Origin: a virus
Lineage: Duplodnaviria > Caudoviricetes
Length of the DNA stretch: 64,000 bases
Strand: one strand, 5' to 3'
Virus record (IMG/VR): IMGVR_UViG_3300013936_000015
Span: 72,533 to 136,532 of that record
Positions 29,026-55,547 of the stretch are shown here, in pieces (the first letter of the stretch is position 1; every line of letters begins with the position of its first letter). Both the position numbers and the translations under genes were made by a program. The notes beneath the pieces were generated by a model. That model was given only the letters and a program-made list of their open reading frames with translations, ran no database searches and was not told the origin of the DNA.

Positions 29026-31212
29026 TTAAGTCTTTTTAATGACATCATTATAAGGATTACCATCATGTAATTGGGTTATCTCAATATCCGTTCTTCTAAT
29101 CTAATCCCCAATCTATTTGTCCTTATATGTTCTGTCTGTTCTTGCTTTATACCAATCTAATTCTAAAGTTTTAGTAATCTTTTCTTTCTCTAACTACATC
29201 TTAGCTTGATTCAACTGTTGCAGCTGCCCTTGTGCTTTCTGTAACTCTTTCTACATCTGCTACAATTGTTGCTACATCTGTTGATTTTGCTAAGATAATT
29301 GTTTAATCTAATTATTTTCTTCCCGCTATTTTTTAATAGCATTCTTTAATCTAATTTTATAATCACTCAGGCTTGTACACGTAACACCATCAATTATTAA
29401 ATCAGGAGGAACAAATCCACCTTTAATAAAATCAGGCATTAACTATTTGAGTTGTTCAAGTTGCCTTGTAATATCTGTAGTAGTTACAATGTGAATATCA
29501 TAATCTGTTAAAGTAAAATACTAAGGAAGAGCTGTAAAAATACGAGATTCTTTATCTCCTAATACTAATGTTCCAATCAGTCCGTTCTTAAAAACTTTCT
29601 TTGCCATATTCAAAGAATCTAACAGCATCTCTTCTACTAAAGTATCAATCTGCTGTGTAAACTGCTTAGTAACAACAAAAGAATTGTTCTGACTAACTTG
29701 AACATTAGTAACAGCATCTCTCTATTGTATTCCATTTAATCGTTCTCTAAATACTCCAGTAATAGAGGAACAAGTAGCCTCAATGGAATCCATAGCCATC
29801 TAAATAGCTTGAACAGACTGCAATCTTACTGTATCATCAAATCCATTGTAAATAGTATTTGGAGTAGCTAATCCTTCTGATAATCTGCCCTCTTGGCTAG
29901 AATCAATAATAGCAGTTCCCTGTTTCTTATAGGCTTGCCATTTTTTGAACCTTTCTGCAAAATTCTATCCTAACATCTTAGGTAATACCGCAATGTCAAG
30001 AATATCTCCTGCAGTACCAGCAGAAGCAATTAAATTATCTCTGTAGAAAACAAGAACATTATATTTATCTTGTAAAGGAGCACAAGCTAATACCATAGAA
30101 TAAGGAATACCACTCCTTGTAATATGTTGAATACCATTTACAGATATACTGCATTTTCTAGGATCAGACATACTTCTTACAACATTCTCATCCTTACCAT
30201 ACAAAATATAAATGTTTGTACCAATTCTTACAGTCCTATATCTATTCTATATATAAGTCTTCTTATCAGTCTCTATCCATTCTACTTCATATACAGGAAT
30301 AAGATTGTTCTCGTAGTCATTTAGAATATTAGTAGGATATCCTGCTTGTCTTTTTCTATTTCTACTTCTTGCTGCTAATAAAGGAACTCTTTTGTTCTAA
30401 CCAACAGCAACTGTTGTAGTATAGCTAATTTCATTTAAATACCCCCACAAATCATCTAAATTACCAATCTCATCACTGGTAAGCTTATCTCCATATTCTG
30501 ATATAATATCTTGTTTTGACATCCATTTTCTAACTACTATCCTCTTAGCATCTTTTACATAATTAGATTCAGGATCCATCTCTGGAAAAGTATTTCTTGG
30601 ATCTAAATCCTCAATGGTAATATTATTACCTGCACCAGATTCTTTAACCCTATAATATTGCTCTCCAGAAATGAGAGTATCTAAAGCTAACTATTTCAAT
30701 TTGTTCTTAAAATCAATACTCCTAGACTGTAATAAATACTCTACTACATTCTATGCAGCAGCCTCATATTCTGATACATAACTGGATTCTATTGACTCCT
30801 TTAATTCATCAATATCATGCTATACTGCTAAATCAGTAGGTTTCTAACCAGTCTGGAAATATGAAATAAGCTTATTCTAAAGTCTCTTATTTAAAAAATC
30901 AAAGACTTCTTTAGCTATTGTAAGCTCTTTTTCCCTAGTAATCTTTGAGATAGTATTACTATCCTTACAAGTTACTTTTGGTAAAATAGGAGTACTTATA
31001 ATCTCTCCTACTAAAGCATCAACGTGTTTCTTGATTAAGGGAATAAATACCATAGAAGTAGGATTGCCTATTCCATACTCCTCTTCTAAATATTTATACT
31101 AGTCCTCATCTAATATGCCATAGTAGTAATTATAAGCCTTTTGTAAATCTTCTTTATCATATACTAACTCACTAATAGCTCTATCCGTAATATCAATTAA
31201 CTCATCTTTCAT
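29026..31212 (-). CDS. Portal protein (728 aa, TAG=Gln)
   Basis: KAYNYYYG...GIGNPTS..FIPLIKKHVDALVGE...; joins 30397..30579 and 29965..30204; Gln-rich coiled-coil tail with TAG in poly-Q context; follows the terminase. Confidence 0.8.
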
Positions 31213-48485: not shown

Positions 48486-48677
48486 TAATCTAATTTCTCG
48501 TAAATATTCATTATAGTACTACCATTAGGTAATCTAAAATGATGCATGATAATAGAATCGCCAGATCCTATTTCTTAGATTTAGAAATATCTAAAATCTG
48601 TATATCATCTATAGATAGGCTCATCATACATAACCCATCTAAATAGATACCTCATAAACCTTATCTTTAAATCATAG

Positions 48678-48749
48678 TTAGGGCACCAGGATTTGAACCC
48701 AGACTAAGTGGGTTAGAGCCACCTGTGCTGACCATTACACCATACCCCA
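48678..48749 (-). tRNA. Amber suppressor tRNA (anticodon CTA), Gln-type body
   Basis: TGGGGTA acceptor with U1-A72, anticodon arm GGTGG-CTCTAAC-CCACT, T loop TTCAAAT. Confidence 0.92.
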
Positions 48750-49612: not shown

Positions 49613-50416
49613 TTAAAGAGGAATGCCGTAACCCTCACGGAAAGATTCAATAACCTCCGCTCCAGTAATACCTGACCCCTTATATAACTCGCCTAATAGT
49701 AACATAGTAGCATTCTCATTCTCTTCAGCAGAATAACGCTTACATAAAACAGAACGAGCCTCCGATAAATCTATATGGCCACTCTCGTCAGTAGCCTTAT
49801 AAATCTTATATAAAGCCGCATCGTCTATACAATACTCAACTAAATCGTAAGTTAACTGATATTCACGATATGCAGAATGACGAGACTTGCGAAAAATACC
49901 ATTCTCAACTAAACAATAATAACCATCCTTACACCTAATCAAACCATTACGGATAGCACACTTCAATAAAGCAATAATGTAAGGACGACAAATGTTTAAC
50001 CTAGAACATAACTCACTAATCGTCCAATAACAACGATTAGTGCTGTTAACACAACAAGCCTTAAATAAAACTAAAAAACTTATTAACCTCGTATCTAAAC
50101 CACTATTCAATAATCTACCTAAATCTACCTCATCATAATGAGTAGTATCAATCTTGTAAGAATTTACCCTAAAGTAACCCTTGGGACCTTTAACACCACG
50201 ATACTCCTTTGTAACTAAACCTAACTCTATAAAACGCTTAATGTGACGCTTAACAGTAGAAGTACTCCGGCCATTAGATAACGTAGACTGACGAACATGA
50301 CTGATGTCAGTGCGAAAATCTGAGTGCTTGCGCAATTTTAAAAATGTATAAACCTCAGATAACTTCAATTCCTTAATGCGCTCGGGAATCTTGAAAATTT
50401 GATTACATTTTTTCAT
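49613..50416 (-). CDS. Tandem winged-HTH, replication-initiator-like protein
   Basis: Two HTH-like segments (RQSTLS...STSTVKRHIKRFIELGLV; TISELCSRLNICRPYIIALLKCAIRNGLI). Confidence 0.55.
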   Translation of the reverse strand: MKKCNQIFKIPERIKELKLSEVYTFLKLRKHSDFRTDISHVRQSTLSNGRSTSTVKRHIKRFIELGLVTKEYRGVKGPKGYFRVNSYKIDTTHYDEVDLGRLLNSGLDTRLISFLVLFKACCVNSTNRCYWTISELCSRLNICRPYIIALLKCAIRNGLIRCKDGYYCLVENGIFRKSRHSAYREYQLTYDLVEYCIDDAALYKIYKATDESGHIDLSEARSVLCKRYSAEENENATMLLLGELYKGSGITGAEVIESFREGYGIPL

Positions 50417-50867
50417 CTTTAAAAATTATTTGTTAATAATAATAATATATATATAAACGTACACACCATATCAAAAAAAAAAATATAAATTGAAAAAAAA
50501 ATTTATATGAAAAAATAATTAAAAAAGAAATGAGAAAAAATGAAAAAATAATGTGAAAGAAAAGAGAGAGTAGTGAAAGAGAGAAAGTTATGAGGGAGAG
50601 AGTAGAGAGAGTTGTAAGGGAGAGAGTAGTGGGGGAGAGAGTAGACAACCCTAGTCAAGCCCCCCGTCCTTCGTTATGGAAAACCGTTTCGCTATCGCTT
50701 CACGTTTTTCCATCCCTCAGTCATGGGGGGGGGATAGTAGAAAATTTGTCTTCAGCAGCAATTGCGTTAATGCTTCTGCACCGCAAAGCGGTGCGCATCA
50801 TTGCGCAATACTCGCTGCACGGGCAAGCGTCCGTCCCGATTTGTCGGACGCACAACACAATTTATTA

Positions 50868-51286
50868 TGGCAATTATGAAGCTGGGGGCTTCCACCCCCA
50901 AAGTCCCTAATGGGACTTACAAACTCCTCGGCGTAGAAGCCGAGGAAAAAGAGGGGAGGAAATACCCCTCTATATCGTTCTCCCTCGAGGGGCTCGAGGG
51001 AGAGAACAAGGGCAAGAAATACCTCTTGCCCTTGGGATTCTCCTCACGCAAATGGGGCGTGCGTAAGAACAATCGGGAATTTGAATGGATTCCCGATGAG
51101 CAGTGGGTCTCCCTCATCAGGGAGACCCCTGAAACGAATGAGTTTACCGCTAAATGGGGCGGTAAACTTCAAATCTCCCTTCGGGGAGAATTTTTCGGTG
51201 CCATCATAAAGAGTGATGGCACTTTCTTCGGTGGCACGCTTTATAGCGTGACCCCGAAACTGCCAAAACGGGCAGCTAAAAAATAG
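50868..51286 (+). CDS. GC-rich early hypothetical protein (ends in TAG stop)
   Basis: MAIMKLGASTPKVPNGTYKL...; followed by a hairpin and T tract. Confidence 0.55.
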
Positions 51287-51454
51287 CTGCCCATTCAATC
51301 CCCATCCTCTATTTGCTGGCATTCTTTGCCAGCATTTAGGGGGTGGGGTTTTTGATTTTCTCTTACTGGAGAAAATCACCTTTCATGCTTGCTTTTCTTG
51401 CAAGCGTTCTCTTACTTCATTTTGGGGGAGTGGGATGGATTGGGAATGATTTTG

Positions 51455-51519
51455 TCAACCCCAGTCACCGACCTATTTTATCAACCCCAGTCACCACATA
51501 GTTTTCTCAACCCCAGTCA
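51455..51519 (+). repeat. Three 13-bp direct repeats TCAACCCCAGTCA at 26-bp period
   Basis: Copies at 51455, 51481 and 51507; variant ACAACCCTAGTCA at 50645. Confidence 0.85.
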
Positions 51520-51603
51520 ATGTGCGTATTAGGGAGTATTCCCTTAGCGGCAGGTTGCTGTGGTGTATAAGGTATTGAGTGCACAATTAAAAAAAATAGG
51601 GAT

Positions 51604-51900
51604 ATGACAAAGACCATGTCCCTGTCCAAGGGTATGCGTCGACAGTTGTTCGACGTAGCTTTGGACAGGGCTGAGGTTGCATGCCCCGATGTGGCAAAGG
51701 AGATGTGGTACTTTCGTGGTGCCCATACTCCCGGAAGCCTCTTCAGTGACGTACAGCAGTATGTCGATGAAGAGTGCTACATCGGAGAGGATGTAACCTC
51801 ATATGGCAACTCTCTCTTTGGAAAGGGAGAGGAGTTCGCATATCTTCTTTCGGATGTGTACCGTGAGTACGGATTCGGAAGATATGTGGACTTCAAGTAG
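51604..51900 (+). CDS. Early hypothetical protein (TAG stop)
   Basis: Intact ORF with A-rich leader. Confidence 0.6.
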   Translation: MTKTMSLSKGMRRQLFDVALDRAEVACPDVAKEMWYFRGAHTPGSLFSDVQQYVDEECYIGEDVTSYGNSLFGKGEEFAYLLSDVYREYGFGRYVDFK

Positions 51901-51999
51901 CCGGAGTTTTCGCACGCTTTTTCTTGGCAACAGAAAAAAGCGTGCATTAGATGTTAAACCGGGAGTAGTATAGTGCTACTCCCATAAAATTAATCAAAA

Positions 52000-52485
52000 A
52001 TGATTGATCTTCAAAAAGAAGAAGCCCAACTGGTAGCACAGGGTGGGCATGTAGGCAGCACCTTTAGTGGTGCTGCAAACGTAGAGCCTGTAGAGGCTCT
52101 CCAGAAGGGTGACAAGTTCACCCTTCCTAATGTTGAAGACTTTAAGGTCTTCAACCAACCAGTTACTGGAACTACCCAGATGTATCAATACCTCTGGGTG
52201 GAAATAACTGACTCCAAGGGAAAAATTTCCCGAAAGCAGATTTCGGGAAATACCTTTGGCAGAAAGGTCCGCCTCTATGATGAGGTGGGCAATCAAACCA
52301 CGGACACTGATGAGTGCCGTGGTACTGCTTCCGATGAGTATCGGAAGCACCCAACTAAGCAAGAGGCAATGGCCTCTTTAGCTGGGAAGAGTTTCATTGT
52401 AAAGGACGCATGGCAGGCCAAAACGCGTTCTTACAACGAACAACCATACCGTGAGGTATGGCTCTATGACATTGATATTGCTTAA
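52000..52485 (+). CDS. Early hypothetical protein, possibly OB-fold
   Basis: Intact 161-aa ORF with A-rich leader and downstream hairpin. Confidence 0.6.
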   Translation: MIDLQKEEAQLVAQGGHVGSTFSGAANVEPVEALQKGDKFTLPNVEDFKVFNQPVTGTTQMYQYLWVEITDSKGKISRKQISGNTFGRKVRLYDEVGNQTTDTDECRGTASDEYRKHPTKQEAMASLAGKSFIVKDAWQAKTRSYNEQPYREVWLYDIDIA

Positions 52486-52513
52486 TCAATGACAGGGGGT
52501 GAGAATCCCCCAT

Positions 52514-52559
52514 TCTCCTTACTGGTGTATTGATATAGGTTCGATTCCTATAAGGAGAA
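52514..52559 (+). ncRNA. Anticodon-less tRNA-like element 1
   Basis: TCTCCTT/AAGGAGA acceptor, 14-nt linker with TGG, ATAGG-TTCGATT-CCTAT T arm. Confidence 0.7.
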
Positions 52560-52636
52560 CTTCATTTTTCGTTTTTTATATCGTAGTTGTCGTGAGATAA
52601 TTACGATACCTCTTTCCCCACAGCGGTGGGGTTTTT

Positions 52637-52680
52637 GGGCTTTATGGTACATAGACATAGTTCGATTCTATGTAAGCCCT
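52637..52680 (+). ncRNA. Anticodon-less tRNA-like element 2
   Basis: GGGCTT/AAGCCC acceptor, linker ATGGT, CATAG-TTCGATT-CTATG T arm. Confidence 0.7.
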
Positions 52681-52709
52681 CTAAGTATTAACAATTAAAA
52701 ACAAACACT

Positions 52710-52943
52710 ATGAAAGAAATGATAATTATGCTTAGTGGAGATAAAAAAATTTATCTTACCGAAATACATTCCAAATTTTCATTTGGGATGTATAAAGATA
52801 CAAAATTTGCGATCACCAACAAACTTTTGAACAAGTTGTTGAAGATGAACGCTGCTGAAAGAAATACCCTTCCTTTCCGATTGGAAAAAGATGAAAACCA
52901 GCCATATCTATGGCTGGAAGCACAGATATTTTCCCGTTTCTAA
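52710..52943 (+). CDS. Early hypothetical protein
   Basis: Intact ORF after the ATTAACAATTAAAA leader. Confidence 0.55.
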   Translation: MKEMIIMLSGDKKIYLTEIHSKFSFGMYKDTKFAITNKLLNKLLKMNAAERNTLPFRLEKDENQPYLWLEAQIFSRF

Positions 52944-53069
52944 AATGGGAAGATATATAGCAAAAATAGACGGGGAACTATTCCCCGTCTTTTCTCACTT
53001 TGGTGAAAGTCTGTATGACTTTTACCAAAGAATTAATAAAAATAAAAAAATAAAAATAGGATTAAAACA

Positions 53070-53252
53070 ATGAAATATTTAATAAGGTTCATAAAGCGGC
53101 TGGATTTTTATTCAGCCTCTCTGCTCCTATTTGTTTTAATAGGAGCATTCCTAAGCGTGTTTGTATGGAAATGCGAATTTTTTGCCGTATGTTTTACGGC
53201 ATTGAGTGTGCTATTCCTCATAATTATCAATACAGATATATTTGGGGAATAA
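53070..53252 (+). CDS. Small two-TM membrane protein
   Basis: Two hydrophobic helices. Confidence 0.5.
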   Translation: MKYLIRFIKRLDFYSASLLLFVLIGAFLSVFVWKCEFFAVCFTALSVLFLIIINTDIFGE

Positions 53253-53290
53253 TATGAAAAGCTGTCGTGTTGTGAAATACGGCAGCTTAT

Positions 53291-53333
53291 AGGCTTCATG
53301 GTGTATAATGTGGTTCGATTCCACATAAGCCTA
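53291..53333 (+). ncRNA. Anticodon-less tRNA-like element 3
   Basis: AGGCTT/AAGCCT acceptor, linker ATGGTGTAT, TGTGG-TTCGATT-CCACA T arm. Confidence 0.7.
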
Positions 53334-53363
53334 CTGATTATTAACAATTTAAAAGCAAACATT

Positions 53364-53780
53364 ATGAGAACTGAAATGAAGAAATTAGTGATTGAAAGTC
53401 TGAAAAACAGCAAGAAGTTTGTTAACAGACTTTCTATGTACCTCAGCGATGAGGCACTGGAGGCACTTGTTTGTGGAATGCCCCAAACGGCGAGAATTAA
53501 AGATATGAAAACATATCTTGCAAAATACTCCACGAACAATCATGTAATCATAAATGCCGAAGTTGATTACGTGAACATTGCTCAGGTATGGGTGAAGGAA
53601 GAATACACGAGAATAGTGTATGTTTCCAGTGAAGAAAATAAGAAAAAAATCGAAGCTGGGGAGTACGCACTCATCAGTGGAGAGAAATCTGATGAGTATC
53701 CTATAAAGGCTACTCAAACATTTCATAGCAGTCGGTCCTTCGATCTGGATGACCCAGAAATAGAGGTCATCTATTACTAA
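53364..53780 (+). CDS. Early hypothetical protein
   Basis: Likely start MRTEMKK after an A-rich leader; terminator at 53788-53815. Confidence 0.55.
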   Translation: MRTEMKKLVIESLKNSKKFVNRLSMYLSDEALEALVCGMPQTARIKDMKTYLAKYSTNNHVIINAEVDYVNIAQVWVKEEYTRIVYVSSEENKKKIEAGEYALISGEKSDEYPIKATQTFHSSRSFDLDDPEIEVIYY

Positions 53781-53877
53781 AATAAAAGCACTCGGGAGAA
53801 ATCCCGAGTGTTTTTATTAATAATACCACTGTTTATAACAATGAAGTATTATGGACGTTGTTATGGTTTAATAGTTG

Positions 53878-53980
53878 GTTGTGGTTTGATGTAGGAACAA
53901 GACGACAAACAACTATTATATTATATATCTTATCTATATTATTAGTTGTGGTTTGATGTAGGAACAAGACGACAAACAAC
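53878..53980. CRISPR. Mini CRISPR array: two identical 36-bp repeats with one 31-bp spacer, no cas genes nearby
   Basis: GTTGTGGTTTGATGTAGGAACAAGACGACAAACAAC at 53878..53913 and 53945..53980; spacer TATTATATTATATATCTTATCTATATTATTA. Confidence 0.75.
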
Positions 53981-54074
53981 GAAAAGTATTTAAATAGTCA
54001 ATAAACTAATTATGGATGTTAACCCTAATTTTGAAAAATAATTCAGAAGTATTTTGGATTTAAATATAATATCT

Positions 54075-54374
54075 ATGAAAATAAAAAAAGGTGAAATTGT
54101 TGAAACTACTGTCAGTAGTATTCAATGTAAAATGCTGATATTATATGTATTCCCTACTCCTACCATCATAAAACTTGGTAAATCAGAAGCGGCAGTATAT
54201 AAATACATAGTCTTCACTAACTCCCAAATATGGCTTGTAAAGAAAATCATCTATAGAAAAAGAAATTCACAAAAAGAATCTCCTATATATGATGATGCAT
54301 ATAATACCATGTGGGAAAAAGAAGATACCATCTGTAATAATTGTATTCTACCAGACATATTCATAAATATGTAA
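54075..54374 (+). CDS. Hypothetical protein
   Basis: MKIKKGEIVETT... intact ORF. Confidence 0.45.
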   Translation: MKIKKGEIVETTVSSIQCKMLILYVFPTPTIIKLGKSEAAVYKYIVFTNSQIWLVKKIIYRKRNSQKESPIYDDAYNTMWEKEDTICNNCILPDIFINM

Positions 54375-55196
54375 ATTTGTATAAATTACAATCCTCTAAA
54401 ATGTGGTATATATAAAAGGTACGCGCGTACATTATATATATAGAGAAAAATAAATTAAAAAACTCTATCATGTGAAAAAGTTTTCCCAGAAAACTCAAAC
54501 ACACAAAAAAGTTTTAGGATTTCCAAAATCAAAAAACTCAAATGTGAAAAAATGTTAACACATGAGAACTACACATATGTAGGATGCATTAGAATACATT
54601 AAAGGTATACAGAGAATTTACATTATATTAAAAAATACAAGGAAAGAATGAAAAGAATATAATAAAACATACTAAAAGAAGACTGAAAAGGCCCGAAAAT
54701 GAATATAAGACCCCATTTCAAAATGTCAACTTAAAATGCAATAACAGCAAAAAATGACATTTCAAAATAAGTAAGACGATAAAAAAAGTATTCAAATAGT
54801 GAATAAAATAATAAAAATATACTAACATTGAAAAATGACGACAGCAGAAGATAACATAGAAGGGTGTAATGAGGAAAAGAGTAGTACTCTCCCCCCACAA
54901 AACCACCTAAAAATCCTCATATAGGTGTTTTTTAGGGTTAGGAAAAATCTTCCCACTTTGTCAAAAATTTTTTTTCAAAAATTCGGTAAATTTTATTTTT
55001 TTATTTTTCACTATTATGTATTTCTTTTTTTCTTTTATTTTATTTTCATTTAGTTTTCTTTTTCATTTAAAAAATCCTATTTTTTGATATTATCATTACT
55101 TATATTTTGCATTATTGCATTAGTGTATATAATTATTTATATTTAGGGTTATTTACTTGTTTTTTATTTTTTTTTTGAATTACAAAAATCAGTTAT

Positions 55197-55547
55197 ATGA
55201 AGAAATTTGATGTTCGCATTCAGATTGTTTTTTTAAACGAATTGAAGAGCAGTTTTCAGATTTTCACTAGGGATGAGTTACTGAGTGAGTTTAGGCGTGT
55301 TGGTATACCTTGTAATCAAATCTTTTGGAGTGTTTTTCGCAACTCTGGATTGATTATTGAAGTATTACCAAATACGTATAAATTCACCAATCCGGGTAAA
55401 CCGATATATTTTCGTATTTTGGATCGAATTTATCAAAAATATCGTGAAAAAATAGAAATTTACCAACATAACAGTGAATTGAAGAAGAAAGAGATTGCGT
55501 GTATTAATTTTTTATTAAAGAGGGGTTATAAAATATATTTACCATGA
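55197..55547 (+). CDS. Hypothetical protein
   Basis: First gene of a tightly coupled operon. Confidence 0.6.
   Translation: MKKFDVRIQIVFLNELKSSFQIFTRDELLSEFRRVGIPCNQIFWSVFRNSGLIIEVLPNTYKFTNPGKPIYFRILDRIYQKYREKIEIYQHNSELKKKEIACINFLLKRGYKIYLP

Follow-up and report, generated by a model that had tools for sequence, protein, structure and literature searches.

A CRISPR mini-array without cas genes in a crAss-like gut phage shares its repeat with a Prevotella type II-C system

The final 64 kb (64,000 nucleotides; hereafter the window) of a linear IMG/VR virus record of 136.5 kb contains a CRISPR mini-array without cas genes, and the array is real. The record belongs to a crAss-like gut phage and has an estimated completeness of ~76%. 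The repeat of the array is identical to that of a type II-C CRISPR-Cas system of Prevotella, which identifies the probable source of the Cas9 and tracrRNA that a phage crRNA would use. Sister phages carry the locus at the same position, either as a repeat-spacer-repeat array or as a single repeat.

Structure of the mini-array

The array is composed of two identical repeats that flank one spacer (Table 1). An earlier note on this DNA, made from the sequence alone, had described a Cas-less mini-array of two identical 36-nt repeats and a 31-nt spacer with 29 A/T positions, and its coordinates and geometry are exact. The presence of one spacer between two CRISPR repeats in a viral genome makes the locus a virus-borne mini-array. 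It is not a solitary repeat, which has no second repeat within ~100 bp; the window has two.

No further copy of the repeat is present in the window or in the whole record when up to three mismatches are allowed, and none of 100 dinucleotide shuffles contained a repeat match. The similarity between the two repeats extends 3 nt in the 5' direction with one mismatch. The array transcript is not predicted to fold with extra stability relative to shuffled sequences (z −1.17), and no CRISPR-DR family of Rfam matched the window. A search for RNA runs that contain this sequence returned none.

Table 1. Features of the mini-array, its neighbourhood and the related spacers in sister phages. Positions without a prefix are those of the window.
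Feature	Position	Strand	Description
Upstream early ORF	53298..53780	+	160 aa (138 aa as called in relatives); no known family
Intrinsic terminator of upstream gene	53789..53818	+	hairpin 53789-53810, T-runs on both sides
11-nt motif, copy 1	53849..53859	+	recurs once, at 54010-54020
Repeat 1	53878-53913	+	36 nt; identical to the Prevotella type II-C consensus repeat
Spacer S1a (AT-rich spacer family)	53914-53944	+	31 nt; 2 C, 0 G, 29 A/T; diverged versions at the same place in L020 and L017
Repeat 2	53945-53980	+	36 nt; identical to repeat 1 letter for letter
23-nt motif	53983..54005	+	directly 3' of the array; repeated at 54785-54807, ~800 nt downstream
11-nt motif, copy 2	54010..54020	+	the two copies bracket the array
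Bacteroidota-type −7 promoter box, TAnnTTTG	54026..54033	+	ahead of the next ORF; 46 nt past the array
Downstream early ORF	54054..54374	+	106 aa (99 aa in relatives); ORFan of this phage lineage only
Spacer family	L003:5909-5938	(−)	sister-phage locus
Spacer family	L012:1515-1547		also in L013 and L016
Spacer family	L125:1747-1776		sister-phage locus
Spacer family	L126:1747-1776		sister-phage locus

The phage and the neighbourhood of the array

The array lies in a viral context: genes for the terminase, portal and tail are present, as are a suppressor tRNA and TAG recoding. The large terminase, the portal and the tail protein were recognized by PHROG matches, and the terminase shares 25-40% identity with its counterparts in uncultured gut phages and in the crAss-like phages of Bacteroides and Flavobacterium. 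About 25 long frames among the late genes (window 1-47871) are open only if TAG is a sense codon. A tRNA with the anticodon CTA is located at 48677-48749 on the minus strand.

The array itself resides within a plus-strand block of small ORFs that is free of in-frame TAG. The placement of the array in the early region, as proposed in the earlier note, fits because the block is on the plus strand and lacks in-frame TAG.

The array starts 60 nt past the hairpin terminator of the upstream ORF. This ORF anchors the locus in all sister phages, and its protein is a member of a 77-member protein cluster; no relatives were found in IMG/VR via this protein. Both flanking ORFs are lineage-restricted and without alignment depth. 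Neither matches a PHROG, Pfam or PADLOC family or a recognisable acr or aca family.

The 23-nt motif that follows the array may be a promoter, an operator or another regulatory element of the early genes; two copies of it occurred in no shuffled sequence. A −7 box of the Bacteroidota type lies after the array, in front of the downstream ORF. No such box occurs from the terminator to repeat 1 or, on the minus strand, anywhere in 53700-55300.

Several other repetitive or compositional features are present nearby. Two 42-nt elements (52660-52701 and 53313-53354) are 81% alike and contain a tRNA T-arm-like motif. The intergenic segment after the downstream ORF (54452-54556) holds three tandem-like copies of an A-rich motif of ~26-31 nt. 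The G+C fraction is 0.38-0.43 over 50001-54000, compared with ~0.30 elsewhere in the window, and the array is located at the 3' edge of this richer block.

The repeat belongs to a Prevotella type II-C system

An exact search located 35 copies of the repeat, spaced at 65-66 nt, on a 53-kb metagenome contig (L004, extended as L005). The genes cas9 (1206 aa), cas1 (of type II) and cas2 immediately precede the host array and score 414 bits (TIGR01865), 294 bits (TIGR03639) and 67 bits (TIGR01573), respectively; csn2 and cas4 are absent. The earlier note had named a repeat unlike that of any cas-linked array as part of what would speak against its proposal; the phage repeat matches at 36 of 36 positions an array beside cas9-cas1-cas2.

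The neighbouring genes on the host contig are chromosomal and include dnaB, rsmG, corA, a DUF349 gene and luxS. The CorA protein shares 95% identity with that of uncultured Prevotella MAGs, and across the genus the identity is 85-91%. Thus, the suggestion that the repeat points to the host leads to Prevotella, via CorA on a chromosomal contig with identical repeats.

The closest Prevotella MAGs, with 95% CorA identity, lack the array; among 401 genomes of the host genus, one has a related array with two mismatches to the repeat. Exact searches with the repeat returned nothing from IMG/VR, even with four positions left free, and nothing from 185,579 species genomes. A megablast search of INPHARED with the locus gave no match. 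One genome of the host genus has a contig whose edge carries nucleotides 1-15 of the repeat (G088:C48:6-24, L127); this may be another related array truncated by assembly.

A candidate tracrRNA is predicted on the strand opposite to cas9, upstream of that gene (L005:6204-6300(−)). Nucleotides 1-21 of the repeat form a duplex with its anti-repeat that has a dG of −25.4 kcal/mol and one 2×2 internal loop. The candidate also has three 3' hairpins, of which the last is a terminator, and folds with a z-score of −4.05. Its sequence is identical in four host contigs; no tracrRNA family of Rfam matches it.

With cas9-cas1-cas2, without csn2 or cas4, and with a predicted tracrRNA upstream of cas9, the host system is of type II-C. 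The earlier note had left the choice between type II and type VI-B unassigned, and its proposed search of the repeat for host and subtype has settled both, through the 35 exact copies beside cas9-cas1-cas2. Type VI-B (Cas13b) was rejected since the only cas-linked arrays with this repeat adjoin cas9-cas1-cas2 and a tracrRNA is predicted upstream of cas9. Because the anti-repeat pairs with nucleotides 1-21 of the repeat, the crRNA sense corresponds to the plus strand of the window. This is also the strand of all neighbouring early genes.

Host strains differ in their leader-proximal spacers, indicating that adaptation is active in the host. The phage is present in four DNA runs (X1-X4). Comparison of public DNA contigs with the locus placed the trailer of the host array in the same sample as the phage, and the same sample series yielded contigs of both host and phage. 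The cas9 gene is intact (1206-1213 aa) in L005, L006 and L008. In one host strain, it is called as three pieces of 212, 901 and 72 aa (L007:6457-10008); Cas9 may have been lost naturally in this strain, which is found alongside the phage.

CRISPR components absent from the phage

The description of the array as Cas-less applies to the whole 136.5-kb record. No cas9, no cas1 and no TnpB zinc-ribbon domain was found in this ~76% complete record, and tblastn with the host Cas9, Cas1 and Cas2 gave no match in it. Since the record is ~76% complete, a cas gene could still be located in the missing ~24%. The record also contains no homologue of the host tracrRNA. The array thus stands apart from any cas gene or tracrRNA in 136.5 kb, with a repeat identical to that of a cas-linked array.

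A phage-encoded tracrRNA was considered and rejected. The best anti-repeat-like site (G000 29540-29575, outside the window) lies inside an open reading frame, and its score was equalled by 1 of 40 simulated random genomes. A fused sgRNA mimic of the kind represented by vsgRNA and rAcrIIA1 was likewise rejected, as the phage is without any tracrRNA part. Capture of the host leader or trailer was discarded too, as no such sequence adjoins the phage repeats.

Variation among sister phages

Contigs that encode the upstream ORF were compared from the terminator to the downstream motif, and 17 complete loci were obtained. More than 20 independent contigs, drawn from four assembly sources, show the locus flanked by the same pair of phage genes. 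A chimeric assembly was rejected because the same-gene setting recurs in SPAdes, MEGAHIT, JGI and Logan contigs and in several sample series. As assemblies of these four kinds show the locus, assembly artefacts account for neither the array nor the solitary form.

Nine of the 17 complete loci are repeat-spacer-repeat arrays and eight have a single repeat, a count in which two identical repeats of some Logan contigs may have been collapsed by the k=31 graph. The nine arrays contain six unrelated spacer families, each 30-33 nt in length; host spacers measure 29-31 nt.

The two repeats of an array differ in conservation. In all nine arrays, the downstream repeat is the consensus or carries C21A or G7A plus C21A, and its pairing with the tracrRNA (dG −25.4 to −27.0) is equal to or slightly better than that of the consensus. 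The upstream repeat carries G7A, G11A and G14A in seven of the nine (with an additional C21T in L003), and the dG of its pairing is −15.0. Solitary repeats carry G7A (three loci), C21A (two), A12G (one) or the triple substitution (two, L015 and L024, pairing dG −15.0). The commonest single substitutions, G7A and C21A, are associated with pairing dG values of −26.0, −26.4 and −27.0, versus −25.4, and with a weaker self-fold of the repeat.

The site is also rearranged in other ways. L015 has lost 14 nt between two short direct repeats (L015:1675-1779), and with them part of the flank immediately 5' of its solitary repeat; this is further evidence that the site is recombination-prone. In runs X1 and X2, contigs cross the upstream flank and repeat 1 (window 53739-53913) and then depart from the window sequence for a further 24 nt (X1) and 112 nt (X2). 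Some phage variants may thus also have a mosaic junction at the repeat.

The locus is an accessory one whose content changes, and a few events could account for its forms. A decayed 5' part of repeat 1 beside a host-like repeat 2 would result from a double crossover with a host array. The identical pair in the window, like the near-identical pair in L020, would be the outcome if Cas1-Cas2 inserted a spacer into a solitary repeat. If the two repeats recombined with each other, a solitary form would remain.

Search for targets of the spacers

No credible target was found in phage collections. Exact 19-21-mers of four spacer families (the AT-rich family in two versions, as well as those of L003 and L012) were searched against IMG/VR, and the spacers of L003, L012, L125 and L126 were searched by BLAST against INPHARED; neither search gave a credible match. 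A protospacer with a consistent PAM was found for none of the spacers searched in these two ways. The earlier note had proposed to search the spacer against phages, and this did not reveal a competitor: the database matches of the window's spacer, which is of low complexity, look like chance.

Searches between phage and host were equally negative. Phage spacers matched local loci at chance level only. In the opposite direction, 58 host spacers (34 from L004, 20 from G132 and four from L006/L010) gave nothing beyond chance against the phage. The whole host array had no match in INPHARED, and no PAM could be derived because the host array gave no protospacers. Among 151 genomes of the host genus, the sole match of the L126 spacer is the repeat-like contig edge in G088.

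Two leads concern further copies of phage spacers. In the loose ends of run X2, the window's spacer occurs outside any array, apparently in a single contig of ~117 nt, and both loose ends probably belong to one record of this length. Immediately after this copy of the spacer come the 3' 26 nt of the L012 spacer in reverse complement. The two candidate protospacers in X2 overlap, and their flanks have no obvious shared PAM. In addition, a contig present in two runs has the L126 spacer, in near reverse complement, ahead of a consensus repeat. These contigs suggest that the spacers stem from a small set of real sequences in the ecosystem.

Possible functions of the array

The preferred reading, to which we assign a probability of roughly 0.55, is that the array specifies an early-transcribed crRNA mimic that relies on the tracrRNA and Cas9 of the host and is directed chiefly at rival mobile elements. 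As the array lies on the coding strand of an early gene block, it would be transcribed early and in the crRNA sense. The first ~21 nt of repeat 2 would pair with the host tracrRNA to give a crRNA carrying the spacer, and the spacer-repeat RNA would then be loaded into host Cas9. The host nuclease would in this way be armed with a phage-chosen guide against another mobile element competing for the same cells, and tracrRNA and Cas9 would be drawn off the host's own ~35 crRNAs. Spacers may be gained by recombination exchange with host arrays or by insertion through the host Cas1-Cas2, and may be lost by recombination between the two repeats.

The asymmetry of the repeats, the canonical lengths of the spacers and their turnover favour a working crRNA made of the spacer and repeat 2. 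An intact downstream repeat next to a decayed upstream one is what would be expected if the spacer and repeat 2 form the functional unit. Against the crRNA mimic stand the lack of a host-type promoter between the upstream terminator and repeat 1, the lack of a credible protospacer, the eight spacerless loci out of 17 and the ~76% completeness of the record. Half of the sister phages have no spacer and two of these have only a weakly pairing repeat, so targeting must be dispensable.

The main rival is a Racr-like decoy, in which the repeat transcript would pair with the host tracrRNA, fill Cas9 with a harmless guide and lower anti-phage immunity, the spacers being passengers. This has a tentative claim, well short of an even chance. 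The eight solitary repeats among the 17 complete loci have the defining form of SRUs/Racrs (PMC10651486), the locus is located in the early block, G7A and C21A slightly strengthen the anti-repeat pairing while weakening the self-fold of the repeat, and none of the 58 host spacers examined matches the phage. However, Racr activity has been shown for types I-C, I-E, I-F and V-A and not for solitary repeats of type II (PMC10651486), and the RNA inhibitors of Cas9 that were reported in 2026 are either fused crRNA-tracrRNA mimics or guides to the cas9 promoter (10.64898/2026.06.01.729453; 10.64898/2026.06.03.729762). A decoy would also make six unrelated spacers of canonical length superfluous, would be poorly served by the solitary forms in L015 and L024, which pair weakly (dG −15.0), and has no recognisable acr or aca family in the flanking genes. 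The crRNA mimic and the decoy could be two states of one element if the phage repeat is a live acceptor, loaded with spacers by Cas1-Cas2 or double crossover and emptied by inter-repeat recombination; it would alternate between a decoy state with one repeat and a weapon state with repeat-spacer-repeat. We consider this acceptor model unlikely.

Still more doubtful is the view that the locus is a neutral by-product, a scar of recombination with a host array that gains and loses host spacers without benefit to the phage. Spacer gain and loss, the decayed upstream repeats, the 14-nt microhomology deletion in L015 and the contigs that continue into unrelated sequence after repeat 1 would all suit such a scar. 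It is at odds with the single position of the locus in every relative examined and with the downstream repeat, which is at most two substitutions (G7A, C21A) from the host consensus in all nine arrays despite the decay upstream; nor was leader or trailer DNA captured along with the repeat. A viral regulator of the scaRNA/tracr-L type, in which a guide 5' of the repeat would send Cas9 to silence the host cas9 or tracrRNA promoter, is very improbable. The concept has been described for phages of II-A and II-C hosts (10.64898/2026.06.01.729453), and the spacer of the window is AT-rich, as is the host cas9 promoter. Yet ten candidate guides, comprising spacers and upstream flanks in all variants, reach a 3'-anchored identity of at most 8-9 nt across the 20.9-kb host locus, and none of these matches falls in the cas9/tracrRNA intergenic region. 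The proposal of the earlier note that the array represses an AT-rich promoter is likewise not borne out, as spacers and upstream flanks match nothing at the host cas9/tracrRNA promoter. Its other two proposals, host Cas turned on a competing phage and an RNA decoy, are retained.

Comparison with known systems

Virus-borne mini-arrays are known from conflicts between viruses (Medvedeva et al. 2019, PMC6858448; Faure et al. 2019; reviewed in PMC11656645). Like them, the phage array has one spacer, two repeats and no cas genes, its repeats are identical to those of the host, and its spacers differ among related viruses. However, the validated cases are archaeal and of type I, whereas the present host system is of type II-C, so that the phage array needs the host tracrRNA too. 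In addition, half of the present lineage is cut down to one repeat, and no target in a related virus was found in IMG/VR or INPHARED.

SRUs and Racrs have been described by Camara-Wilpert et al. (2023, PMC10651486), whose search tool classes mini-arrays apart from solitary repeats. The phage locus resembles them in carrying a mimic of a CRISPR repeat in a phage genome and in the solitary form of sister phages. It differs in that the window has a full repeat-spacer-repeat and no recognisable acr or aca neighbour.

The vsgRNA and vscaRNA (10.64898/2026.06.01.729453) and rAcrIIA1 (10.64898/2026.06.03.729762) are phage noncoding RNAs derived from parts of Cas9 guide RNAs. The phage array is likewise built of such parts, but the phage has no tracrRNA scaffold or anti-repeat and no guide that matches the cas9 promoter.

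The phage array and the host type II-C system (L005) share the repeat sequence and its length of 36 nt, and the spacer is of the length of host spacers (29-31 nt). Unlike the host locus, the phage copy is devoid of leader, cas genes and tracrRNA, and has one spacer versus 34.

Implications

The phage locus is a further example of known phage devices, namely viral mini-arrays and solitary repeat units. It bears on how such catalogued elements gain spacers and on whether type II versions, which need the host tracrRNA as well, can work. The sister phages provide a natural series at one locus that includes single repeats, identical pairs, decayed-plus-intact pairs and six spacer families. If the phage repeat is indeed an acceptor site, the phage population would hold a shared, fast-turning memory of rivals that runs entirely on the type II-C machinery of the host.

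The analysis also yields a firm host assignment, to Prevotella, for an uncultured, TAG-recoding crAss-like phage. With the cognate host cas9, tracrRNA candidate and array all identified, it becomes testable whether the locus is a decoy or a weapon, whether spacers arrive by recombination or by Cas1-Cas2 insertion, and which elements compete with the crAss-like phages of Prevotella.
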